A stretch of DNA of 64,000 nt from contig CAXXRD010000001.1 of assembly GCA_963663895.2 (NCBI GenBank), positions 384,001 to 448,000 of the forward strand. The letters are read 5' to 3'. This document shows, piece by piece, positions 2,432 to 59,568 of this stretch. The position numbers were made by a program, and so were the translations under genes. The notes under the pieces are model-generated. The model did no database searches and was not told where the DNA came from. It saw nothing but the letters and a program-made list of their open reading frames with translations. The DNA comes from Dehalococcoidia bacterium. Its GTDB lineage: Bacteria; Chloroflexota; Dehalococcoidia; Bin125. Numbering within the stretch: position 1 is the first letter of the stretch; every line of letters begins with the position of its first letter.

Positions 2432-3680
2432 CGACGCGCAGCCAGCGGCGCTTGCCGATCTTGAGGATATCGCCAGGCGAGAGGCGCACCTGGGGCGCCT
2501 CGAATGGCTGGCCGTCGCGCTGGACGCCGCCTTGTCCTACAAGACGCTTCACCTCGGCCTTGCTCTTGACGACGCCGGCAGTTGTGAGAAGGACGGCGAG
2601 GTCCACTTCGGCAGTGGCGCCGTCGAAGCGAAGCGCCACCTCCTGCATCTCCGCCGGCGCTTCCCGCTTGGAGAAGACGCGCTTGAACTGCGCGGCGGCG
2701 GCATCCGCCGCCGCCGCGCCATGCCACTCGCGCACGACGGCACGGGCAAGGCGCCGCTTCGCTTCCATCGGATGCAGGTCCCCGGTCGCCAAGTCGCGCT
2801 CGAGCGCGGCGACCTCGTCCGCAGGCAGGTTCGTGCCCAGCGTGAAGAACTGCGGGAGGGCCGCATCCGGGATGGACATCGTTTTGCCGTATTGCTCGTC
2901 CGGAGGCTCGTCGATACCGATGTGGTTGCCCTGGCTCTTGGACATGCGCGCCTTGCCGTCGAGGCCGACGAGGATGGGGAAGGTGATGGCGACCTGCGGC
3001 GGCTGGCCGTGGGCGCGCTGTAGAATCCGGCCGGCGATCAGGTTGAAGGTTTGGTCCGTCCCCCCGATCTGCACGTCGGCACGGAGGGCCACGGCATCGT
3101 AGCCTTGCATCAGCCCGTACATGAACTCATGCACATAGACCGGGGCGCCCCGATCGAGCCGCCGGGCGAAGGTATCGCGCTCCATGAACTGGGCGACCGT
3201 GAAGTGACTCGCCAAGCGGATGACCGAAGCGAAATCGAGCCCCCCGAGCCACTCGCTGTTGCGCCGCACCTCGGTGCGCTCGGGATCTAACACCTTGAAC
3301 GCTTGCTCCTGATAGCCGCGGGCGTTCTCCTGAAGCTGCTCCATGGTCGACATCGGGCGCAGGGCGTCCTTGTCGGAGGGATCCCCCACAAGACCCGTGA
3401 AATCGCCGATGAGGAGAATCGCCTGATGGCCCAATTCCGCAAAAGTGCGCAGCTTGCGCAGTCCCACGACATGGCCCAAGTGCAGATCCGGGGCAGTCGG
3501 GTCGACACCCAAGTAGACCCGCAAGGGCTGCTCTTCGCGGATCGATACGGCCAGCCGCTCGCTTAACTCGCGCTCCATGGTAACGCGCGTCTCCGCGTCG
3601 CCAAAGACGGTGCCGCGCATGATCAGGGCGTGCTGGCGCTCGACCTCCGCCTGGAGCGCCGGGCTGCCCTCGCCGCTCAT
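2421..3680 (-). CDS. tyrS: Tyrosine--tRNA ligase
   Basis: YLGVDPTAPDLHLGH (HIGH), QGYD, GGTDQTFN, RMSKS (KMSKS), C-terminal S4 domain. Confidence 0.95.
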   Translation of the reverse strand: MSGEGSPALQAEVERQHALIMRGTVFGDAETRVTMERELSERLAVSIREEQPLRVYLGVDPTAPDLHLGHVVGLRKLRTFAELGHQAILLIGDFTGLVGDPSDKDALRPMSTMEQLQENARGYQEQAFKVLDPERTEVRRNSEWLGGLDFASVIRLASHFTVAQFMERDTFARRLDRGAPVYVHEFMYGLMQGYDAVALRADVQIGGTDQTFNLIAGRILQRAHGQPPQVAITFPILVGLDGKARMSKSQGNHIGIDEPPDEQYGKTMSIPDAALPQFFTLGTNLPADEVAALERDLATGDLHPMEAKRRLARAVVREWHGAAAADAAAAQFKRVFSKREAPAEMQEVALRFDGATAEVDLAVLLTTAGVVKSKAEVKRLVGQGGVQRDGQPFEAPQVRLSPGDILKIGKRRWLRVVAH

Positions 3681-4609
3681 ACGCCCAGGACCGCACGGGC
3701 AGCGGCGGAGTCGCGCTTCATCTGCGCGACCAAGGCGTCGGCACCGTCAAACTTCCGCTCACCACGGAGGCGCGCAGCGAATTCGATGCGCAAGTCTCGC
3801 TTGTAGAGGTCGCCGTCGAAGTCGAAGACGTGGCACTCGATCGACAAGGCCGCGTCATCGTTGAAGGTCGGCCGGACGCCGATATTGGTGACCGAGGGCA
3901 GGGGAGCGCCTGCCACGCGGGCAATGGTCGCGTAAACGCCGACCGCAGGCAACGCGCGGTCCGCGCCGACGGCGATGTTGGCGGTGGGAAATCCAATCGT
4001 GCGGCCACGCTGGACGCCATAAATGACGGGACCATGGAGGGAAAAGCGGCGGCTGAGCAATGCGTTCACCTGGTCGATCGCACCCGTGCTGAGCGCCCGG
4101 CGGATATCGGTGGAGGATATCTTGCCCTCGGCCTCCTCCAGCAGCTCGATCACCTCGACCGTGAAGCGGAGCTCTCGGCCAAGCGCGCGCAGCGTCTCCG
4201 GATCGCCGCCACGGCAGCGACCGAGAGCGAAATCAGGGCCGATCACCAAGTGCCTCATCTGCAGGTGCTCGACGAGCAAGCCGACGAAGTCGGCGGCATC
4301 CGTCTGAGCGAGCTCGGAGGTAAACGTGACCGGGACGACGCAAGGGAGGCCGAGGCCGTGCAGCAGGTCGAGACGGTCCTCCAGACTGGTGATGTAGGAG
4401 ATTTGGACGGCGGGAGTGATCACTTGCCGCGGGTGAGGGTGGAGCGTAACGACGCCAGGAGCGAGATCGGTTCGCTTCGCGCTCTCAATGAGCCGCGCCA
4501 TAAGCGCCTGATGGCCGCGGTGGACGCCGTCGAAGATGCCGAGCGTGAGGGCAGTAGGCTGGCCGACCGCAGCGCGCTGCAACTCCTCACGCGCCAATGC
4601 GGTGCTCAA
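3677..4609 (-). CDS. ribF: Bifunctional riboflavin kinase/FAD synthetase
   Basis: GIFDGVHRGHQ, ISSTDIR, GRTIGFPTAN, NIGVRPTF, LRGERKF. Confidence 0.95.
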   Translation of the reverse strand: MSTALAREELQRAAVGQPTALTLGIFDGVHRGHQALMARLIESAKRTDLAPGVVTLHPHPRQVITPAVQISYITSLEDRLDLLHGLGLPCVVPVTFTSELAQTDAADFVGLLVEHLQMRHLVIGPDFALGRCRGGDPETLRALGRELRFTVEVIELLEEAEGKISSTDIRRALSTGAIDQVNALLSRRFSLHGPVIYGVQRGRTIGFPTANIAVGADRALPAVGVYATIARVAGAPLPSVTNIGVRPTFNDDAALSIECHVFDFDGDLYKRDLRIEFAARLRGERKFDGADALVAQMKRDSAAARAVLGV

Positions 4610-4684
4610 GAGTGCTCCCCTTCGCGCGGTCGCTGCCGCGAGCGTTACCGTACCACGCGCACTGCTTCGGATCGGAGGTGTGGC

Positions 4685-5476
4685 TTACGCTTCCGGGTCC
4701 GCTGCAGACGGCGTCTCCGCTCCCGGTGCGGAGACCTGCTGGCTGGCGGCGGGCCGCAACTCGACCAAGATATCCCCGTAGCTCTCGTCCTGCTGCATCT
4801 CGATCGCGCGCGATTTATAGAGCTCCAAGATGGCGAGGAACGTGACAATCACCTCGATGCGGGTCTCCGCATCCGCAATCCAGCGCCGGAACGAGAGCTG
4901 CGTGCCAGGCCGCAGACGGGCCCGCAGATCCGAGACACGCTGCTCAACGGTGAGAGGCTCGCGCTGCAGCTCGACTGCTTGCTTGGGCTTCCGCGCCGCC
5001 GCGCGGGCCAACGCCTCGTGAACCAAGCGGGAGAGCAGATCTAGGGTGAGGCTATCCGGCAGACTCTGGGGAGCGCGGCTCTTGGGAGCCGTCACGGAGC
5101 GAGTCGGGAAGGCGCGCAGGCCGCTGGAGTCGATGGTGTGCAGGACGCCGACGGCCTCGCGATAGCGCTGGTATTCCTCCAGCATCTGAACGAGCTCGCG
5201 GCCGACATCCTCGTCCTCTTCGTCTGCGTCAGCAGCCTCACCGGGGAGCAGTGCCCGTGACTTCAGTAGCATGAGTCGAGCGCCGATGACGATGAAATCG
5301 GCGAGAGACTCCACCTTGTCGGCGCCGCGTCCCTCTCCAAGCGCCTCCACACTGGCGAGGTATTGGTCCGTGACCTGGAGGAGGGACACCTCCGAGATAT
5401 CGAGCTGGTTCTCTTCGATCAACTGGAGCAAAAGCTCCAGCGGTCCCTCAAAACCAGTAATGCGCAGCTCAACCAT
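4685..5476 (-). CDS. scpA: Segregation and condensation protein A
   Basis: FEGPLELLLQLI, KSRALLP, IVTFLAILEL. Confidence 0.92.
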   Translation of the reverse strand: MVELRITGFEGPLELLLQLIEENQLDISEVSLLQVTDQYLASVEALGEGRGADKVESLADFIVIGARLMLLKSRALLPGEAADADEEDEDVGRELVQMLEEYQRYREAVGVLHTIDSSGLRAFPTRSVTAPKSRAPQSLPDSLTLDLLSRLVHEALARAAARKPKQAVELQREPLTVEQRVSDLRARLRPGTQLSFRRWIADAETRIEVIVTFLAILELYKSRAIEMQQDESYGDILVELRPAASQQVSAPGAETPSAADPEA

Positions 5477-5568
5477 CTCACAGCAGCGTACACCGCCAGC
5501 CGGGCAGTCCTGACCGCGGGGCGCATCCGTGGGGGCGTTGCCGGAGATCAGCCTCCGACAGGGAAGTG

Positions 5569-6627
5569 TCAGACGGCCGAAGGGTCTCGGCGCGAAGCGG
5601 GCGGCTGGGGTGCCAAGTGCCGGTTCAGAGCCTCCGATACCGGCGAGAGGCTACGGACCATCGCGGCGAAATTCTCAAAAGTGAGCGACTGCGCCCCATC
5701 GGAGAGGGCATGATCTGGGCGGGGATGGACCTCGACCATCAAGCCATCCGCGCCCACGGCGACGGCGGCGCGCGCCATCGGTTGCACCAGCTTCCAACGA
5801 CCGGTGCCGTGGCTGGGATCACAGACGATGGGAAGGTGGCTCAGATCCTTGACCAGCGCGATAGCGGCGAGATCCAGCGTGTTGCGCGTCGCGGTCTCGA
5901 AGGTGCGGATGCCTCGCTCGCAGAGGATCACCTCATGGTTGCCGCGCGCCATGATGTACTCCGCCGCCAGCAGCCACTCTTCGATGGTGCCGCTCAAGGC
6001 GCGCTTGAGCATGACCGGCTTAGGGACGCAGCCAACCTCGTCGAGCAGGTTGAAGTTCTGCATGTTGCGCGCGCCGATCTGCAGGATGTCCGCGTAGCGC
6101 GCGACTAGCTCCATGTCTTCTACCGCCATCACCTCCGTGATCACGGGCAGGCCCGACTCCGCCCGCGCCGTGGCGAGGTGTTTCAAGCCTTCCTCGCCCA
6201 ACCCTCGGAAAGCGTAGGGCGAGCTGCGTGGCTTGAAGGCGCCGCCGCGCAGCACGTGCGCACCAGCTGCCGCGACCGCCCTGGCGGTCGTCACCATGTG
6301 CTCCTCGCTCTCAATGCTGCAAGGACCCGCCATGACCACAAAGGAGCCATCGCCGATGCGCACGCCGCCCACTTCGATGATGGTGTCGCGCGGCTTGAAT
6401 TCCCGACCGGCGAGCTTGTACGGGCGGCTAATCGGGACGACCGACTCGACGCCGGTCATCGTTCCGATCGCGGTACGAATCTCGGGATCGACCACCCGAC
6501 CAACCGCGCCGATCACGATGCGCTCCGCGCCCGCCGACAGGTGACCTTCCAGGTTGGCCTCCTTCAGCCGGTCGAGTACGGCCTGCACCTGCACTGGGGG
6601 AACCCCGGTTTCCATGATTACCAACAT
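5569..6627 (-). CDS. aroF: DAHP synthase (class I-beta, N-terminal regulatory domain)
   Basis: [44 protein letters not shown]. Confidence 0.95.
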
Positions 6628-6663
6628 CGTTCATTCCCTCTTGGAACGGCAACGCCGCGAGCG

Positions 6664-7062
6664 TCACTCCTGTGCGTCATTGTCGCCGGAAACGTCAGGC
6701 CGCAGAGCCGTGGCTCCGCGCAGATAGACATGCTGCATCTCGGATTGCTCCCTGTCGGTGTTGAGATGGACGAGGACACGCAAGCAGCGCTCCAGGCCGC
6801 CGGGAACGCGCATCTCGTGCCCGCACATCAGTGCCACGTTGTCCCAGCCGATCTCCCGAGCGGCGACAGCGGGAAATTCCGCGTCCAGGTCCGTGGTGGT
6901 CGTGAACAAGGCAGAGGCCACGTGCGCCGAGACGATGCCGTTGCGCGCGATCAATGCTTCAAGCAACTCCCGCGCTGCGGCCACGATCGCCTCGCGCGTA
7001 TTGTGCTCCACCGTCGTAGCGCCCCGAATTCCGCAGAGGCGGAGGGGGCGTGCGTCGCCCAT
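6664..7062 (-). CDS. aroH: Chorismate mutase, AroH class
   Basis: [36 protein letters not shown]; ATG at 7062 with AAGGA upstream. Confidence 0.92.
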
Positions 7063-7185
7063 GCAAAGTTCCTTGGATAGAGGCTGGCTGATCGTGCGGG
7101 TTGGCCGCTCAGGCGAGCCCGAAGCCGCCGGCTGCCGCATCGACGCGATACGCGGGGCGAGGCCGCAACCGTCGCAGGCAAGGCC

Positions 7186-8025
7186 TCATCGCAACTCCTC
7201 GTCGATCCGGCGGCCGGTGACCACCTCTACGAACTCTTGCAGCTTAGTCGGCCGCTGCGCCTTGTCTGCCGCCGCAATCACATCGATCAGGGCGCTGCCG
7301 ACGACGGCAGCCTCACATAATCCGCCGATAGTTTCAAGCTGCGCACGACTTGATAGGCCGAAACCCACGGCGATCGGCAGGCGGACGCCGGCGCGAACGC
7401 GGGCAACGCAGTCGACCAGGTCGGGGGGAAGCTGCGAGCGGGCGCCGGTGACGCCGGTGACGCTGACCAGGTAGACGAAACCGGAGGCGCGCCGGGCGAC
7501 GGCGCGGATGCGGGCCTCCGTGCTGGTGGGCGCGAGGAGATAGATCAGGTGAAGCCCATGCCGGGCAAGAGGCGCGCGCAAAGGATCGGACTCCTCGGGA
7601 GGGAGATCGACGATCAGCAACCCATCGACGCCGGCGGTCGCAGCATCGCGGGCCAGCGCGGACAGACCGGCCCCGCCGGCGTAAGCGAGGAAAGGATTGA
7701 GGTAGCCCATCAGGGTGATGGGAATCTCGACCCCAGCTTCACGCAACTTTGCGACGGTCTCCACCGCAAAGGCGAGGGAGGCGCCGCCCTGCAATGCGGC
7801 CATGTTCGCGCGCTGAATCGTGGGACCGTCTGCCAGCGGGTCACTGAACGGCACTCCAAGCTCGAGCGCACCAGCCCCCCCGCGCACGAGCGCTTGGACG
7901 AGAGCGACGGTCTCATCACGGCTCGGATAGCCGACGGTGAGAAACGGCATGAAGAGCGGGCGGCCTTCGGCGCGGGCGGCGCCGAAAGCCTCCGCGTAGC
8001 GAGACGACAGGGCGCGAGCGCTCAT
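7186..8025 (-). CDS. trpA: Tryptophan synthase alpha chain
   Basis: ELGVPFSDPLADGPTIQ, VDLPPEE, YLVSVTGVTG. Confidence 0.95.
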   Translation of the reverse strand: MSARALSSRYAEAFGAARAEGRPLFMPFLTVGYPSRDETVALVQALVRGGAGALELGVPFSDPLADGPTIQRANMAALQGGASLAFAVETVAKLREAGVEIPITLMGYLNPFLAYAGGAGLSALARDAATAGVDGLLIVDLPPEESDPLRAPLARHGLHLIYLLAPTSTEARIRAVARRASGFVYLVSVTGVTGARSQLPPDLVDCVARVRAGVRLPIAVGFGLSSRAQLETIGGLCEAAVVGSALIDVIAAADKAQRPTKLQEFVEVVTGRRIDEELR

Positions 8026-8831
8026 CCGACCCCCCGATCGAAGACCAACACCACGAAGCTAATCGCGTTGAAGAGTCCGTGCGCCAGGATGGCGCCGTTG
8101 AGCGAACGCGAGCGCCAGTAGACCAGCGCAAACACCACCCCCACGACCGCGAAGGGGATCAGGCTACCCGGGTCGAAGTGAACGGCCGCGAAGAGCGCCG
8201 AGCTGGCCAGCGCCCCGGCGACGACGCCGAAGCGCCGGCCCAGCCCGGCAAAAATGAAACCGCGGTAGAAGATCTCCTCGGCGATGGGCGCCACAAGCAC
8301 GACCAAGATGCCGGTAAGAACAACGAGGCTCACCGAAGCGTAGATCGCATCGTTGTCGATGCTGGAGACAGGTTCCAGATCTTCAACGCCCGCAACCTCC
8401 ACGATCCCCACGTAGAGCCAGACCACCGCCATCGCGCCGACCAAACCGGCGATCCCCCACCCGAGGTCACGGGCGGCGGGACGGCGGAATCCGAGGCGGG
8501 CGAGCGCGCGCCGCCCGCCGCCGAGGAGCATGATCGGCAAGGCAACGAGCGCCAGGAGATCGATGACGAGCGTAGTCAGGAAGCCGGCCCAGAGCTTCTC
8601 CCGATCGGAAGCGTCCGGCTCGATCGCCTCCAAAGCGCCGACAGCGGCGATGGTGAGAAGGAAGACGATCGCTAGGGCGATCACCAAACCCGTCCAGACG
8701 GTGCGGACGCCGAAGCCGGCTCCAAGCCAGCTCTCCGCAGGACCCGGAGCGGCCGGCGCGGGATCGGCTTGGCGATAGGGATCCGGCGGTGGGAGCGGAG
8801 CGTCGGGGAACGTGTCCTGCGACGGCTTCAC
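8022..8831 (-). CDS. CPBP (CAAX/Abi) family intramembrane metalloprotease
   Basis: APIAEEIFYRG, FAAVH, AHGLFN motifs; multiple TM segments; start estimated at GTG 8831. Confidence 0.85.
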   Translation of the reverse strand: MKPSQDTFPDAPLPPPDPYRQADPAPAAPGPAESWLGAGFGVRTVWTGLVIALAIVFLLTIAAVGALEAIEPDASDREKLWAGFLTTLVIDLLALVALPIMLLGGGRRALARLGFRRPAARDLGWGIAGLVGAMAVVWLYVGIVEVAGVEDLEPVSSIDNDAIYASVSLVVLTGILVVLVAPIAEEIFYRGFIFAGLGRRFGVVAGALASSALFAAVHFDPGSLIPFAVVGVVFALVYWRSRSLNGAILAHGLFNAISFVVLVFDRGVG

Positions 8832-8854
8832 GACGGCAGCCCGGCAGCCAAGGG

Positions 8855-10066
8855 TCAGGAAAGCCGCGCCGCGCCGAGGTCGACGCCGCGCCGCGCGAGC
8901 GCATCCTGCACGATGCTCATGTCCTTGTCGCCGCGTCCACTCAGGCAGAGCGCTATGCACGTGCCCGCATCGAGTGACGGCGCCAGCTTGGCAAGGTAGG
9001 CCAAGGCGTGGCTGGGCTCCAGCGCCGGCACAATCCCCTCCGTACGACTCAACAGCTGAAAGCCGTCGAGCGCCTCGTCGTCCGTGACGGCGACGTATTC
9101 GGCGCGCTCACGCAATTTGAGCCACGCGTGCTCCGGACCAACGCCCGGGTAGTCGAGACCGGCGGAAATACTGTGCGCCTCCTCGATCTGGCCGTCGGAA
9201 TCCTGCAGCAGATAGGAGCGCGTGCCATGAAGCACGCCCGGCCGGCCGAGCGTGAGGGTAGCCGCGTTGCGGCCATCAAGGCCTTCACCCGCCGCTTCGA
9301 CGCCGATCAGGCGTACATCGTCCTCGACGAAGGGATGAAACATGCCAATGGCATTGCTGCCCCCGCCCACGCAGGCGATCACGATATCGGGAAGGCGGCC
9401 GGTAGCGGTCCGTAGCTGCTCTCTGGTTTCGCGGCCGATGACGGTCTGTAGATCTCGCACGAGCGTAGGGTAGGGGTGGGGGCCAATAGCGCTCCCCAAA
9501 AGGTAGTACGTGTCACGCACGTTGGTAACCCAGTCGCGGATCGCCTCGTTGATCGCATCCTTGAGCGTGCGGGAGCCGGACTCGACCGCGCGCACTTCGG
9601 CGCCGAGGAGTCGCATGCGGAAGACGTTCAACGCCTGGCGGCGTACGTCCTCCGCACCCATGTAAACGACGCAGTGCAGACCGAAGCGAGCGCAAGCGGT
9701 CGCGGTCGCGACGCCATGCTGACCGGCGCCGGTCTCAGCGATGATCCGTTGCTTGCCCATGCGCTTGGCGAGCAGGGCCTGCCCAAGCGCATTGTTGATC
9801 TTGTGGGCGCCCGTGTGCGCCAGATCCTCACGTTTGAGATAGATCTGGGCGCCACCCAACTCCTCACTGAGGTGGGGAGCGTAGGTGAGGGGGGTGGGGC
9901 GGCCGGCATAGCTCCGAAGGATGGCGCCGAGCTCGCGTTGGTAGGCGGCGTCATTTTTGGCGGCGGCCCAAGCCTCTTCGAGTTCGGCGAGAGCCGGCAT
10001 CAGTACCTCCGGCACGAACTGGCCGCCGAAATCCCCGAAGCGACCGGGCAGCGCGCCCGCGGTCAC
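8855..10066 (-). CDS. trpB: Tryptophan synthase beta chain
   Basis: [49 protein letters not shown]; GTG overlaps trpF stop. Confidence 0.97.
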
Positions 10067-10773
10067 GACGGGTCTCGCATCGCCGCCGGCGCCCGCACGG
10101 CGGCCTGGATGAAGGCGGCGATCTCGGCTGGATCCTTGCGACCCGCGCGCTCGACGCCGGAGGAGACGTCGACAGCCCATGGACGGACTTGCGCGACGGC
10201 CGCCGCGACGTTCTCGGGCCCAAGACCGCCAGCGAGCATAAGCGGGCGCTGGGCGGCGACGGCCGCGGCAATACTCCAGTCGAAAGATCGGCCGGATCCA
10301 CCTCGGCGGGCGGCGTCCTGCGTGTCGAGCAGCGTGATGGTGGGCGGCAGGCGCCGCGCCTCCGCCAAGAGACGCTCGGAACTGTCCTCCGGCCCGACGT
10401 GCAGGACGCGGAGAACCGGCCGGTTAAGACGGCCGATCAGCGCCGGATGCTCGCCGCCGCTAAGCTGCACGAGGTCCAAGTCGGCGCCGACGGCGATGCG
10501 ATTAATCGCTTCGGGCGCCTGATCGGCGAAGACGCCCACGAGCAGCGGTCGACCCGCCGCCCTCCGTGCCGCGGTCACCGCGGAGGCTTCCGCATTGAGG
10601 ATGGGAATGCGCGGTCCAAGGCGGGCACGGATCGCGCGGGCCTGCTCCAGCGAAACGCGCCGGGGACTCTCGGCGAAGATCATTCCGACAAAGTCGGCGC
10701 CGCTTGCGACGGCAGCGTCGACATGGACGATCTCGCGCAGCCCGCAGATCTTGACGAGTGGCGGCTCACACAT
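10063..10773 (-). CDS. trpF: Phosphoribosylanthranilate isomerase
   Basis: [33 protein letters not shown]. Confidence 0.93.
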
Positions 10774-11611
10774 CAAAGAGCTCGCGAATCTTCGCGCGGG
10801 GATCGGGGGTAGTGGAGAGCGCCTCGCCCACCAGCACGCCCTGGACATCGCAGGCGCGCATCCGCACGACATCTGCGGCACTGCGCACGCCACTCGCGGC
10901 GACGAGCGGCACATCGTCTGGGATGAGCGGCCGGAGACGCTCGGTTGTGTGGAGATCTTCCTGAAAGGTATGGAGGTCGCGGTTATTAATCCCCAGAAGG
11001 CCGGCGCCTGCTTGCAAGGCGCTCACCGTCTCTGCCCCATCGGTGACTTCCACAAAGGCCGTCATGCCGAGCGCGGCGCCAACCCCGATCAGCTCGCGCA
11101 GTTGCTCCGTGTCGAGCGTCTTGGCGATCAAGAGGTAGGCGTCGGCACCAAGCGCACGCGCTTCGACGACTTGATAGGGGTCGATGTGGAAATCCTTACG
11201 CAGTAACGGCGGCGCGACAGACCCGCCGGCCCGTTCATCGGCGTGCAGCGCCTCGGCGACGCTCGATAGATCAGCGTCGCTGGCGAAGAAATAGCGGGAC
11301 GTGAGAACCGAAATGGCGACGGCGCCGGCGTCGCGATAGAGGCGGGCCGCCGCACTCGCGTCGAGGTGGGGCGCAAACTCGCCCTTGCTGGGGGAGCCGC
11401 GCTTCACCTCGGCGACCAGTCCGCCGCACACACCGGTGAGCGCGGCGCGGAGGTCGCGGGGGGGCGGGCGCTGCTCGGCAGCCCGTTCCAGCGCGGCGAG
11501 CGGGTGCGCCGCCTTGCGCGCCGGCAGCTCGCTCGCCAGGGCACGCGTGATACGCCGCAACACCGAATCGGCGGCGCTACCGGAAATCTCCGCCGCGGCC
11601 CGGTCAGTCAT
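10766..11611 (-). CDS. trpC: Indole-3-glycerol phosphate synthase
   Basis: AEVKRGSPSKG, ISVLT, LLRKDF, GINNRDL, LVGEAL. Confidence 0.93.
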   Translation of the reverse strand: MTDRAAAEISGSAADSVLRRITRALASELPARKAAHPLAALERAAEQRPPPRDLRAALTGVCGGLVAEVKRGSPSKGEFAPHLDASAAARLYRDAGAVAISVLTSRYFFASDADLSSVAEALHADERAGGSVAPPLLRKDFHIDPYQVVEARALGADAYLLIAKTLDTEQLRELIGVGAALGMTAFVEVTDGAETVSALQAGAGLLGINNRDLHTFQEDLHTTERLRPLIPDDVPLVAASGVRSAADVVRMRACDVQGVLVGEALSTTPDPRAKIRELFDV

Positions 11612-22624: not shown

Positions 22625-22701
22625 GCCCCCGTAGCTCAACTGGATAGAGCCGCGGCGTTCTAATCCGCAGGTTGCAGGTTCGAGTCCTGCCGGGGGTACC
22701 A
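22625..22701 (+). tRNA. tRNA-Arg (anticodon TCT)
   Basis: Acceptor GCCCCCG/CGGGGGT-ACCA, D-arm GCTC/GAGC, T-arm GCAGG-TTCGAGT-CCTGC, anticodon loop GTTCTAA. Confidence 0.92.
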
Positions 22702-56199: not shown

Positions 56200-57072
56200 A
56201 TGCCCAAAATCTTGATCCCGCTGGATGAAGGGCCCGCCTCCGCAACGACGCTGGCGGGCGCGCGCGCGATCATGGGGAACATGCCGTGGACAGTACGGCT
56301 GATCTACAGCGGCCATGACCCCGAGGGAACGATGCGCACCCACATGGATACCGTCGCCGCGGATCTCAAGGAGGAGGGGCATTTCGTCACCGTCGTGATG
56401 ACGGCCGGAGCATCCGACGCGGTCAGCATGCTGCAGCGTGCGATCATCTCGCCTCGCATGGACATCGTTGTACTGACGCGACAGGAAAGCGGGGAGGGGT
56501 GGCTCGATGCCGAAGTACCTGTTGCTATGGCGCACCGCTCCCAGTTCTGTCCGGTTCTGATCATGCCGGCCCCGCCGACGCTGGAAGCAGCCGCGTCGTA
56601 CCAAGTCGGACATCTGCTGGTCGCGTTGGACGGATCCGCGACGGCGGAGCTTGGAATCGATGTAAGCCTGACCTTGGCAGAGCGGCTGGGCGCGCGCGTC
56701 ACCGTCATGACGGTGGCAGAAGCGGGAAAGGCGCCAGTGAGTCAGGCAGAGTCGCCGGCGATCGCGACAGCTGCGGACGCGGAAGGCTACCTGGACGGAG
56801 TCGGGCAGCGATACGCGGATCGCGTGCAGTTCGCGCGCGTGGCCCGCCAGACGAGCCAGCCGATCAGCGACGCGCTCGCCCAGGAAGCACGTCAACGAGG
56901 CGCGCACTTGATCGTCATCACCAGCCACGGCGCCAGCGGCGTCCGCAAGAGCGGCTTGGGGCAGGTCGCCGAAGCGCTGGCGCGGACGGCACCCGTCCCG
57001 GTGTTGATCGCCCGGCCGATTCCGACATCGCAGGTGCGCTTCGGGCGCGGGGCTCTGCTGAAGAGCCGCTAG
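56200..57072 (+). CDS. Universal stress protein (two domains)
   Basis: ILIPLD, LLVALDGS, LIVITSHG...LGQVAE...PVPVLI. Confidence 0.85.
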   Translation: MPKILIPLDEGPASATTLAGARAIMGNMPWTVRLIYSGHDPEGTMRTHMDTVAADLKEEGHFVTVVMTAGASDAVSMLQRAIISPRMDIVVLTRQESGEGWLDAEVPVAMAHRSQFCPVLIMPAPPTLEAAASYQVGHLLVALDGSATAELGIDVSLTLAERLGARVTVMTVAEAGKAPVSQAESPAIATAADAEGYLDGVGQRYADRVQFARVARQTSQPISDALAQEARQRGAHLIVITSHGASGVRKSGLGQVAEALARTAPVPVLIARPIPTSQVRFGRGALLKSR

Positions 57073-57986
57073 CCACCGCGTCGCACCTCCACGCCGGCCA
57101 TCGCCTCGAGTGCTCGTACGAGAGCCTGCGTTCCCTCGTCCTGGGCGTCGTCAGCCTCAAGAGCGTGGAACAGCTGGTGTACGAGCGCGGTACCGGGGAG
57201 AGCAAGCTCGAGCTCCTGAGCCGCGGCCAAGGCAAGGCGCAAGTCCTTCTGTTGCAGTCTGATCATGAAGCCGGGAGCGAAGTCACGGTCGAGGACGCGG
57301 GGCGCGAGATTGCTGAGCATCCACGAGGCAGCAGCGCCCGACGACACGGCCTCCAGCATCTTGGCCGGATCGACGCCAGCCTTTTGCGCGAGCACCAGAC
57401 ACTCGCTCATCGCTAACAGATGGATCGCGCCCGCCACTTGGTTGCAGAGCTTGACGGTCTGGCCCGCTCCCACCGGGCCAACGTGCACGATCGTCTTGCC
57501 CAGCGCCTCGAAGAGAGGACGAGCACGTTCGACGACTTCGCGCTCGCCACCGACCATGATCGCGAGGGTGCCCGATTTGGCGCCGCCCTCTCCTCCTGAG
57601 ACGGGCGCGTCCAACATCGCGACCCCACGTTGGGCGAGCCGGACGGCCAGATCGCGAGTGACCGCGGGGCTAATGGTGCTCATGTCGATGAAGACCGCAC
57701 CGGGCCGGAGCCCGTCGGCAGCACCGTCCGGACCAAAGAGGACCGCCTCGACATCGGGGGAGTCGGTGACCATCGTGATCAAGACGTCGCTGCTTCGTGC
57801 GACGGCGCGCGGGCTCGCGGCCTCCGCGGCGCCATTCGCAAGCGCGGCCTCAATACCAGGACGACTGCGATTCCAGGCGGTAACCGGGAATCCACTCCGC
57901 AAAAGGTTGGCGGCCATGGGGAGGCCCATAATCCCTAAGCCAATGAAACCGACGCGAACCTGGCTGGCAGTCAAGAGCTTCCTCAC
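57069..57986 (-). CDS. NAD(P)-dependent beta-hydroxyacid dehydrogenase (GarR/MmsB family)
   Basis: GFIGLGIMGLPMA, DAPVSGG, VKLCNQ, KDLRLA; start uncertain. Confidence 0.9.
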   Translation of the reverse strand: MRKLLTASQVRVGFIGLGIMGLPMAANLLRSGFPVTAWNRSRPGIEAALANGAAEAASPRAVARSSDVLITMVTDSPDVEAVLFGPDGAADGLRPGAVFIDMSTISPAVTRDLAVRLAQRGVAMLDAPVSGGEGGAKSGTLAIMVGGEREVVERARPLFEALGKTIVHVGPVGAGQTVKLCNQVAGAIHLLAMSECLVLAQKAGVDPAKMLEAVSSGAAASWMLSNLAPRVLDRDFAPGFMIRLQQKDLRLALAAAQELELALPGTALVHQLFHALEADDAQDEGTQALVRALEAMAGVEVRRGG

Positions 57987-58129
57987 TGATGGCTCGCCCA
58001 CGAACGGGATCATCGCGGGATGAGGCAGTGTTACCACCGAGTAAAATCGGCCACAAGCCACAGGCCGGCAGCATGCACTCATCCACAATAGACCGTGAAT
58101 CGGTTATGCTTGGTTTGTTCGAAAACTGA

Positions 58130-58265
58130 ATAGTTGAGTGGGCCGAATCCCTTTTACCAGGGAGCGGGGGACCCGACTTCTTTGGGGTGAATGGGGCGGA
58201 AACGTCCCTAGGCGTAAACCCTTCGCGCCGAACCCGTCAGCTAACCTCGCAGGCGATCGAGGTGG
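58130..58265 (+). promoter_or_regulatory. Cyclic di-AMP (ydaO/yuaA) riboswitch aptamer
   Basis: Consensus blocks in order: GCCGAAUCC, GGAGCGGGGGACCC, UUUGGGGUGAAU, UAGG, CCGAACCCGUCAGCUAACCUCGCAGGCG. Confidence 0.9.
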
Positions 58266-58280
58266 TACCGCGTGTCTCCA

Positions 58281-58314
58281 GATGCCGACTCGGCCGAGCC
58301 AGTCGGCGTTTTTT
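58281..58314 (+). terminator. Intrinsic terminator, expression platform of the riboswitch
   Basis: GATGCCGACT/AGTCGGCGTT hairpin followed by T-run. Confidence 0.8.
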
Positions 58315-58358
58315 GCGCCCGGTTTCGGTTTGGCTCGCTCTCTAGCGTGTGGGTATCA

Positions 58359-58716
58359 GCGGCATCTTGCTGGATGCCGCCGACCATGAAAGGGACAGGG
58401 TTCTCGCTCTCCCTGTCCGCCTCCTGGCCAACCCGGGTCTTGTGCCCGGGTTGGTTACGTTAAGAGAGAGTTCGGCCGGGGCTTATGCAGGCAAGCACCG
58501 CGGACGCGCTTAGCAACCGCAAAGCCCCTCCGTAAGGCCCAAGGACGCGTCCGCTGCGTCTACAGCAGGCCGCACGGAAGAACGTACGTATAGCCGTCAG
58601 GCCGGTGTGCAGTTCCCACCGCACAGTACCTGGCGGCTCAAGGACGCGCCGCCAGGGCCCTTCATAGAGGCCGCAACCGGTCCGGGGGTCGGCGTTGCAG
58701 TAGACCGGGAGGGGCT
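58359..58716. ncRNA. Candidate structured non-coding RNA of unknown family
   Basis: At least nine helices of 7-12 bp, including long-range ones; no credible ORF. Confidence 0.55.
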
Positions 58717-58737
58717 GCGCACGCATACTCCGCCATT

Positions 58738-59568
58738 ATGCGGACCGATCCGCTCGCCTCCTTTCCGAAGCGCTCAGTTCGTTCCGTGCCGGCGATTTCG
58801 AGCGAGCAGATGCGCAAGGTCGATCGGCTCGCGCTTCGCGATGCCGGCCTCTCGCTGCCGCAGTTGATGGAGAACGCCGGGCGTTCACTGGCACGGGTCG
58901 TCGACGCCTACCTACAACGAGGCAGTCCGGCGGAAAGCGGGGCAGCGCCGCAGAACTCCGAAGCGGCGCGGCACAAGCCGATTCTCGTGCTGGCCGGCAA
59001 CGGCGGCAACGGGGGCGGGGCACTCGCCGCCGCACGTCATCTCCGCAACTGGGGACAGCCGGTCCAAGTGGTGCTGAGCGCGCCGCCCGGCAATCTCAGC
59101 GAAGCGACGGCACAACAGTTGCGAGCGCTGCACAAAGATGGCCTGCGGGCACTCTGGCCGGCCGCTCCCGAGTTCGACGCGCGCTTTCCAGAGTGGCTGC
59201 AGGAAGCAAGCCTCGTCGTGGACGGCTTGATCGGGTACGGCCTGCGCGGGCCGCTACAGGGAGATCCAGCCGTGTTGGTGGAGGCAGTGCTGGATCGAGC
59301 GCCGCCAGTAGTCGTGTCGCTAGACGTGCCCAGTGGTTTCGATGCCAGCAGCGGGGCGGGCGCGGCGAGTGGCGTGGTTGCGACCGCGACAGTCACACTG
59401 GCGCTGCCGAAGACCGGCCTCTTGCAAGGCGATGGAGCCGCCGCGGTCGGCGAACTCCTGCTCGCCGATCTCGGGATTCCCGCCTACATCTACGAACGGC
59501 TCGACATCGACGGTGTCCGGGGATTGTTCGCATCGGGGCCGATCCAGCACCTGGTCGAGGAGGAATAA
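58738..59568 (+). CDS. nnrE: NAD(P)H-hydrate epimerase (YjeF N-terminal)
   Basis: LMENAG, GNGGNGGG, VDGLIGYG, SLDVPSG, ADLGIP. Confidence 0.9.
   Translation: MRTDPLASFPKRSVRSVPAISSEQMRKVDRLALRDAGLSLPQLMENAGRSLARVVDAYLQRGSPAESGAAPQNSEAARHKPILVLAGNGGNGGGALAAARHLRNWGQPVQVVLSAPPGNLSEATAQQLRALHKDGLRALWPAAPEFDARFPEWLQEASLVVDGLIGYGLRGPLQGDPAVLVEAVLDRAPPVVVSLDVPSGFDASSGAGAASGVVATATVTLALPKTGLLQGDGAAAVGELLLADLGIPAYIYERLDIDGVRGLFASGPIQHLVEEE

Follow-up and report, generated by a model that had tools for sequence, protein, structure and literature searches.

A conserved structured RNA, very probably gated by a c-di-AMP riboswitch, in one family of Dehalococcoidia

Small RNAs (sRNAs) under riboswitch control are already known: EutX of Enterococcus and Rli55 of Listeria are reportedly controlled by adenosylcobalamin riboswitches and are said to sequester an ANTAR regulator, and a SAM-I riboswitch has been reported to act as an sRNA in its own right. 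The site recognised by ANTAR proteins consists of two adjacent hairpins with hexanucleotide loops. The locus described here lies in a 64,000-nucleotide stretch of a Dehalococcoidia bacterium genome (contig CAXXRD010000001.1, positions 384,001 to 448,000; hereafter the window), where an aptamer of the cyclic di-AMP (c-di-AMP) or ydaO class stands upstream of a non-coding part, free of credible open reading frames (ORFs), that contains a structured RNA domain of about 125 nt which we term R1. It resembles EutX and Rli55 in that a riboswitch with a terminator appears to decide on a downstream non-coding RNA (ncRNA), the product being an RNA regulator, as we suppose, and not an mRNA; it differs from them in the ligand class, here the second messenger c-di-AMP, and in that R1 has no ANTAR dual hexaloops and is a separate sequence family, restricted to one family of Chloroflexota. 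R1 is a new RNA family, although riboswitch-controlled ncRNAs as such are not new. We consider it very likely that the R1 unit is a riboswitch-gated, stand-alone structured RNA, and probable, with less assurance, that positions 58116-58465 form one self-contained unit, a riboswitch-gated and self-terminated ncRNA gene whose R1 part acts in trans.

Three other described systems bear comparison. The CcsR1 'CCUCCUCCC' RNAs and 6C RNA are hairpin sRNAs with conserved unpaired, pyrimidine-rich motifs resembling anti-Shine-Dalgarno sequences and with an intrinsic terminator; R1 too has such motifs and an intrinsic terminator hairpin, but it is hit neither by RF02791 nor by any other family model, and it is fused to a riboswitch. 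One locus of genus g7 (L042:515-590, minus strand) gives a sub-threshold CcsR1 match ('CCUCCUCCC motif', 26.2 bits against a required 65.3) about 1 kb from R1, probably by chance. The merRNA of Bdellovibrio, according to the accessible part of its report (PMC3627812), is a c-di-GMP riboswitch RNA without a downstream ORF, conserved only within Bdellovibrio and proposed, because of its massive expression, to be a store or sponge for the messenger; our locus is like it in having a cyclic-dinucleotide riboswitch within an ncRNA that lacks a dependent gene, but here the aptamer has a conserved partner, a distinct 3' domain that covaries and has invariant nucleotides at unpaired positions. In the leader of Dehalobacter ablA, as set out in PMC9337991, a Na+ riboswitch comes first and a c-di-AMP riboswitch follows, both being known aptamers, and a lysine-2,3-aminomutase gene stands behind them. 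The two loci share the arrangement of two structured elements, each with its terminator, one of them a c-di-AMP aptamer; R1, however, matches no known aptamer, and often no gene follows it. A c-di-AMP-controlled ncRNA was not found in the full-text literature, a search whose scope left out supplements, the usual place of gene-association lists.

A DNA search of 60 related genomes gave, besides the aptamer (74-80% identity across genera), a second conserved block at about 58388-58440 with 88-93% identity. A covariance model of R1 built from 15 sequences found the domain in 62 of the 65 genomes of this Dehalococcoidia family with speed filters on, in all 10 genera (g1 to g10 below) and mostly as one copy per genome; with filters off it was found in two further g6 genomes (G014 and G035), bringing the count to 64 of 65. 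Since the genomes of the family are kin, these and the later counts overstate independence, and all the evidence presented is computational. None of 144 other genomes of the class has R1, nor does a true R1 occur in 149 other genomes of the phylum, where the one weak match is on the antisense strand of an ABC-ATPase gene, far from any aptamer. Named records that bear R1 are titled, among the matches listed, as Chloroflexota or Dehalococcoidia metagenome-assembled genomes. Scanning genome contigs with a sequence pattern was of little use: among the matches listed, R1 was present at 4 of 80 loci, the other 76 being due to chance. R1 is single-copy in the window genome, and a repeat or mobile element was rejected as an explanation. 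No Rfam family covers it, the thresholds being E<=10 for the window and E<=5 for six homologous loci, and the first-pass annotation, made from the window sequence alone, was right to assign the RNA to no known family.

From 5' to 3', R1 comprises a motif of family pattern YRYGRG-GU (motif M), stem A, a linker, stem B with loop UUCUCGCUC, a single-stranded GCCUCCUG, a GC-rich stem C and a U-rich tail (Table 1). The proximal region 58336-58468 folds with a z score of -5.76, and 0 of 200 shuffles fold as well. Across the family 18 of 24 pairs change on both sides, standard pairs fill 95.4% of alignment cells as against 35-66% when the partners are slid, and 0 of 500 shuffles reach any of five measures; these counts come from 38 R1 matches (36 distinct sequences) in an alignment made with the model, which leans to the model structure. 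G-U and U-G pairs number 46 and A-C and C-A pairs 2, which places the R1 RNA on the plus strand, the same as the aptamer. Indels between genera break any reading frame, and R1 is therefore non-coding; a small ORF or decayed gene was rejected as an explanation on this ground and because three ORFs tested in the region have no Pfam hit and the ORFs are not kept in congeners. Congener G002 has no ORF of at least 60 aa in the matching region, in keeping with the earlier observation that about 420 nt here hold no credible coding sequence.

The loop of stem A ranges among genera from about 3 to more than 20 nt and that of stem B from 10 to 12 nt, the latter including the 9-nt stretch UUCUCGCUC that is nearly invariant across the family. 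Motif M may pair with this loop in a pseudoknot (GUGGG 58349-58353 with CUCGC 58403-58407): such pairing is feasible over 4-7 bp in every genus, all changes are compatible with it (Y opposite G, R opposite U), and the duplex z scores are mostly negative, weakly better than shuffles. Three other pairings were rejected. RNAalifold joined motif M to GCCUCCUG in a closing helix, for which the duplex z scores are mostly positive. An antiterminator formed by the region upstream of R1 with the 5' arm of terminator 2 clearly beats shuffles only in g5 and in three g7 loci, is borderline in one g6 locus and is not general. Pairing of loop B with a strand of the aptamer core reaches z <= -1.9 in 7 of 13 representatives and not in the other 6, and the partner strand varies (GAGCGGG or GAACGGG) without any change in loop B.

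R1 and the aptamer go together. Each of the 67 R1 matches is preceded, on its own strand, by an RF00379 match (sequences were read at 43 loci and coordinates compared for the remainder), and the single family genome without R1 is also without the aptamer. The aptamer and terminator that the first-pass annotation had recognised at 58130-58314 are upheld by the Rfam match and the terminator scan (Table 1); RF00379 also scores above its cut-off in 16 of 16 related loci, and a hairpin with U-tract occupies the place of terminator 1 in most genera. The window genome (2.37 Mb, 91% complete) has a single RF00379 match, that of the window, and encodes a DAC-domain cyclase. The family has 84 such matches, spread over 64 of its 65 genomes, 48 of which, the window genome among them, have exactly one aptamer, so that the one linked to R1 is their sole c-di-AMP riboswitch. 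Family aptamers without R1 do exist, and the four that were examined directly precede a lysine-2,3-aminomutase-like gene with a Shine-Dalgarno sequence; it follows that R1 is not an extension of the aptamer but, very probably, what this riboswitch controls.

The unit would thus run promoter, c-di-AMP aptamer, terminator 1, R1, terminator 2. The putative promoter was not called by a strict consensus scan and, like the other promoters here, was read by eye against the consensus; relatives have the same layout (TTGGCA or GTGACA, 17 nt, TAnnnT, then (G/C)ACAACUGAAUA). It would start transcription at about 58116, giving a full RNA of about 345 nt and a terminated form of about 200 nt. According to PMC7266159 and PMC9337991, binding of c-di-AMP favours the terminator in this riboswitch class. 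Were the window aptamer to behave like its class, bound c-di-AMP would favour terminator 1, and R1 would be made only at low c-di-AMP.

Contigs from three metatranscriptome runs, from which neither ends, strand nor level can be read and in which DNA may be present, cover 58150-58300 and, bridging terminator 1 with 18 differences, 58063-58358. They hint weakly at transcription of the region and at occasional read-through of both terminators; elsewhere the 3-kb stretch is for the most part uncovered in the three RNA runs, which is uninformative. Close relatives occur in DNA runs labelled as sponge and coral metagenomes, and in sponge run X9 one unbroken piece spans all 3 kb, with 33 differences.

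What stands behind R1 varies with the genus. In g6-g8 it is a convergent enoyl-CoA hydratase gene, its stop codon side towards R1, in 19 of 20 loci and within about 40 nt in 15 of the 20; with such a gene directly behind it, R1 has nothing to regulate in cis. In g1, g2, g4, g5, g9 and g10 it is a gene for a 276-aa YjeF_N-domain protein, in 17 of 18 loci (the remaining contig is too short), at a gap of about 50 to 740 nt. A [CG]ATACT box lies 6-9 nt before the ATG of this gene in 15 of 15 loci from the six genera, preceded in 14 of the 15 by T[AG]GA[CT][CG] at 16-19 nt, and no Shine-Dalgarno sequence is seen before the ATG. The conserved pair presumably acts as a promoter, and its spacing, along with the missing Shine-Dalgarno sequence, implies that the mRNA is leaderless or nearly so. 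Riboswitch control of a downstream protein-coding gene is accordingly not what the family presents, given the convergent gene of g6-g8 and the promoter of the YjeF_N gene, which is probably a neighbour and not the riboswitch target. The puzzle of an 'nnrE' gene, not a typical ydaO target, behind this riboswitch is resolved by that conserved promoter and the leaderless setting; and the earlier suggestion that the regulated product is a structured ncRNA, not nnrE, is supported by the comparison, the domain being conserved, covarying and provided with its own terminator hairpin.

Table 1. Features of the R1 locus; positions are those of the window
Feature	Position	Strand	Basis
Putative promoter of the riboswitch unit	58081-58109	+	-35 TAGACC 58081-58086, 17-nt spacer, -10 TATGCT 58104-58109
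c-di-AMP (ydaO) riboswitch aptamer	58131-58270	+	RF00379, full model (1-134), 92.7 bits; gathering score 38
Terminator 1, riboswitch expression platform	58284-58315	+	GCCGACU/AGUCGGC stem 58284-58307, U6 58309-58314; called by terminator scan
R1, structured RNA domain of about 125 nt	58341-58465	+	Own covariance model, 115 bits, match 58341-58464
Motif M, GCGUGUGGGUAU, family pattern YRYGRG-GU	58345-58356	+	Alignments
Stem A, GCGGCAUC / GAUGCCGC, loop UUGCUG	58359-58380	+	Changes on both sides in 4/4 modelled pairs
Stem B, GGACAGGG / CCCUGUCC, loop UUCUCGCUCU 58401-58410	58393-58418	+	Changes on both sides in 5/8 pairs; 98.6% of cells paired
Single-stranded GCCUCCUGG, anti-Shine-Dalgarno-like	58419-58427	+	Variation in the family C<->U only
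Stem C / terminator 2, CCAACCCGGG / CCCGGGUUGG	58428-58462	+	58428-58437 with 58445-58454; changes on both sides in 9/12 pairs; U-rich tail UUACGUUA
Genus-specific spacer, unsupported as structured RNA	58466-58700	+	Distal fold z -1.70; helices decay in congeners
Putative own promoter of the YjeF_N gene	58701-58740	+	-35 TAGACC 58701-58706, 17 nt, -10 CATACT 58724-58729, ATG 58738
YjeF_N-domain protein, 276 aa ('nnrE')	58738-59568	+	Pfam PF03853, E 1.3e-36

The first-pass annotation had suggested for this region a single large RNA of 320-360 nt (58378-58694), held together by long-range helices and a crossing pseudoknot. All nine complementary pairs on which this rested do exist in the window, except that the arm given as 'ATGAAGGG' really reads ATGAAAGGG and its helix needs a 1-nt bulge; the whole of 58315-58737 folds better than shuffles (z -3.5 on the plus and -5.0 on the minus strand); one long-range helix, LR2, keeps 8/8 and 7/8 of its pairs in two congeners, with one possible compensatory change; and a contig from the RNA libraries extends to 58536. 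The fold-versus-shuffle comparison nevertheless speaks for the proximal part only, the distal part (58470-58737) giving z -1.70 by itself with 13 of 200 shuffles as good. That distal part is conserved within the genus only (90% identity in G001 and 72% in G002, where the first 370 nt of the region reach 87%), and in G002 a 225-nt insertion directly behind terminator 2 splits it from R1. Congeners lose pairs without compensation, keeping 3/5 of hairpin D, 7/9 of E, 7/8 and 6/8 of the long-range helix LR1, 2/7 of pseudoknot arm PKa and 7/9 and 6/9 of PKb; LR1 and LR2 would moreover compete with the covarying stems A and B, and the stretch runs at its 3' end into the putative YjeF_N promoter. Such a large RNA is therefore highly improbable. 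Of the local hairpins, the three that became stems A, B and C covary over 36 distinct sequences and D and E do not hold, losing pairs in congeners; the long-range closing helices and the pseudoknot, all placed wholly or partly in a genus-specific spacer without significant structure, are not sustained; and the size shrinks to a conserved domain of about 125 nt, found in 64 of 65 family genomes. What separates R1 from the YjeF_N gene, 270 nt in all, is spacer together with the putative promoter of that gene.

Two further explanations keep R1 and give it another role. It might be a second aptamer or a protein-dependent attenuator, forming with the first a tandem two-input switch that controls what lies downstream, YjeF_N where present. 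The succession of aptamer, terminator, structured domain and terminator is that of the Na+ / c-di-AMP tandem as PMC9337991 describes it; R1 has, as aptamers have, a near-invariant loop and linker and a possible pseudoknot; the stand-alone YjeF_N paralogue occurs only in genera where it stands behind R1, as near as about 50 nt in g9; and one RNA-library contig bridges terminator 2. Against it, R1 is still kept in 44 of 47 genomes of g6-g8 (46 of 47 with G014 and G035), where most loci have a convergent gene immediately behind it; in 15 of 15 loci the YjeF_N gene has its conserved promoter, set for a leaderless start, and its distance from R1 varies between about 50 and 740 nt and allows an insertion of 225 nt; the search for antiterminator pairing gave nothing consistent; and R1, without a match to any Rfam aptamer family, does not place the second element in a known aptamer class, nor is there a common downstream gene for both elements. 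We therefore regard a tandem switch as improbable, and judge as similarly improbable that the RNA acts through its aptamer, as a buffer or sponge for c-di-AMP with R1 as a stabilising 3' module, or that R1 is a decoy for an RNA-binding regulator. It is true that 48 of 65 genomes have no other aptamer for c-di-AMP and that no gene depends on this one, that merRNA offers a precedent for proposed messenger storage (PMC3627812), and that in g6 and g3, where terminator 1 has no U-tract, aptamer and R1 may always be one RNA. A stabilising module, however, would not need an invariant 9-nt loop and an invariant linker, and the loop lengths of stems A and B do not fit ANTAR dual-hexaloop sites.

For the self-contained ncRNA gene that we favour, the question becomes how R1 might act. 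Conservation in R1 peaks at unpaired positions, those of the 9-nt loop and of the pyrimidine linker beside the terminator, the linker changing only between C and U, which is what a G-rich partner would allow and is typical of base-pairing sRNAs. Loop UUCUCGCUC and linker GCCUCCUG would pair with purine-rich sites in mRNAs, and we hold action in trans by base pairing to be plausible, if short of probable. An exact complement of the loop, GAGCGAGAA, lies in the argF-cdaA intergenic region of the window genome, 86 nt before the ATG of its own cdaA, in a genome with 29 such 9-mers. In 10 of 32 genomes, kin and not independent, from 5 of 9 genera (g1 3/3, g10 1/1, g2 1/3, g7 3/5, g6 2/10), the 100 nt before cdaA contain a Watson-Crick complement of the loop of at least 7 nt, as against 63 of 2236 control windows of the same loci (2.8%); over the 200 nt before cdaA the antisense strand has a complement in 0 of 32, and G008 has two sites in tandem. 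The 5' region of cdaA would on this evidence be the candidate target, and a feedback loop on c-di-AMP synthesis would result: R1 would be the effector arm of an all-RNA c-di-AMP homeostat, its loop pairing with the diadenylate cyclase mRNA in the leader and so resetting the production of the ligand to which the riboswitch itself responds, and it would probably pair with other osmotic-stress mRNAs as well. That cdaA is a target we nevertheless think unlikely, and the homeostat is offered as a speculation of doubtful standing.

Several observations weigh against the picture of a gated, self-terminated and trans-acting RNA, or against its cdaA branch. At loci of g6 and g3 that were read between aptamer and R1 (for example L019-L021, L041, L048-L054 and L016-L017), the terminator 1 hairpin has no U-tract (0 of 8 loci in g6); ligand binding to the fused aptamer might in these genera control R1 allosterically after synthesis. 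Terminator 2 of the window has a poor U-tract and is not called by the terminator scan, U-rich tails behind stem C being present in most genera and the U-tracts better elsewhere than in the window. A 239-nt RNA-library contig (58308-58536; 2 differences, 8 gap letters) bridges terminator 2, so that read-through, or DNA in the library, is possible. In g9 the YjeF_N start lies only about 50-120 nt behind R1, close enough for co-transcription to be possible. As to cdaA, the site is missing in 22 of 32 genomes (g9 7/7, g6 8/10, g3, g4 and g5) despite the invariant loop; duplex energies of R1 with cdaA leaders are no better than those of shuffles (z -0.7 to +2.1 in 16 genomes); and in G025 R1 is present while the homologous place lacks the site, whereas G034, without R1, keeps a wobble version, for which reason the co-loss of R1 and site in G034, once considered as support, was dropped as not clean. 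A naive two-seed scan of the genome was not enriched (4901 merged hits, against 2640-11186 for shuffled seeds), and Hfq was not found in the window genome, which is 91% complete.

In g6 the spacer between aptamer and R1 keeps an extra hairpin (CCGUG...CACGG) and a CGGUUCGCC box. The 3' side of the R1 terminator is a variable spot, the 225-nt insertion of G002 (L004/L028) included. A gene resembling HTH/ImmA follows R1 in g3 (L016/L017) and one resembling RepA/AAA_25 follows one copy in G012 (L179, C150), these mobile-element-like genes being named from their translations only; behind the second R1 copy of G005 there is no plus-strand gene for 840 nt, and then a convergent one. Like tRNA genes, the R1 gene may offer, at its 3' end, a target for integration. 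Variation is confined to the downstream side of the locus: upstream of the riboswitch a divergent 3-hydroxyisobutyrate-dehydrogenase-like gene (57069-57965, minus strand; NAD_binding_2 and NAD_binding_11) is present in most genera examined. The only other Rfam match in the window is a tRNA gene (22625-22698, plus strand; RF00005, 57.1 bits).

The stand-alone YjeF_N paralogue is confined to the six genera in which it adjoins R1; in g3, g6, g7 and g8 the sole YjeF_N match, 35-39% identical, lies elsewhere in the genome within open frames of 583-715 aa. The paralogue carries GNGGNGGG in place of GNNGGDG, which we take to be the usual motif.

The other c-di-AMP aptamers of the family that were examined (L181-L184, in G010, G006, G011 and G031) stand directly before a lysine-2,3-aminomutase-like gene of about 500 aa, named from its translation (osmolyte beta-lysine route), a position that fits the published association with ablA. 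In the window genus the aminomutase-like gene (G000:C1:94031-95392, L185, outside the window) has no aptamer; its leader of about 330 nt, kept in all three congeners and without an Rfam match, may be another leader RNA of a new kind. A 10-mer, AGAGCGAGAA, of which the genome has 10 copies, occurs about 230 nt upstream of this gene, identical in G002, in wobble form in G001 and missing from g6 and g3; its place may be outside the transcript, before the gene's promoter, and we do not count it as support for R1 pairing.

The R1 locus thus presents a whole bacterial family that, as we read it, uses a c-di-AMP riboswitch to gate a conserved structured RNA, an RNA-only output of the c-di-AMP pathway, and it adds a strongly covarying member to the catalogue of RNA families. 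With about 350 nt, two terminators and one known ligand, the unit offers a clean test system. If R1 is a regulator, it would be the first c-di-AMP-controlled ncRNA in the literature searched, and the c-di-AMP regulon of these bacteria would be reached through RNA-RNA or RNA-protein contacts that are invisible to gene-neighbourhood analysis.

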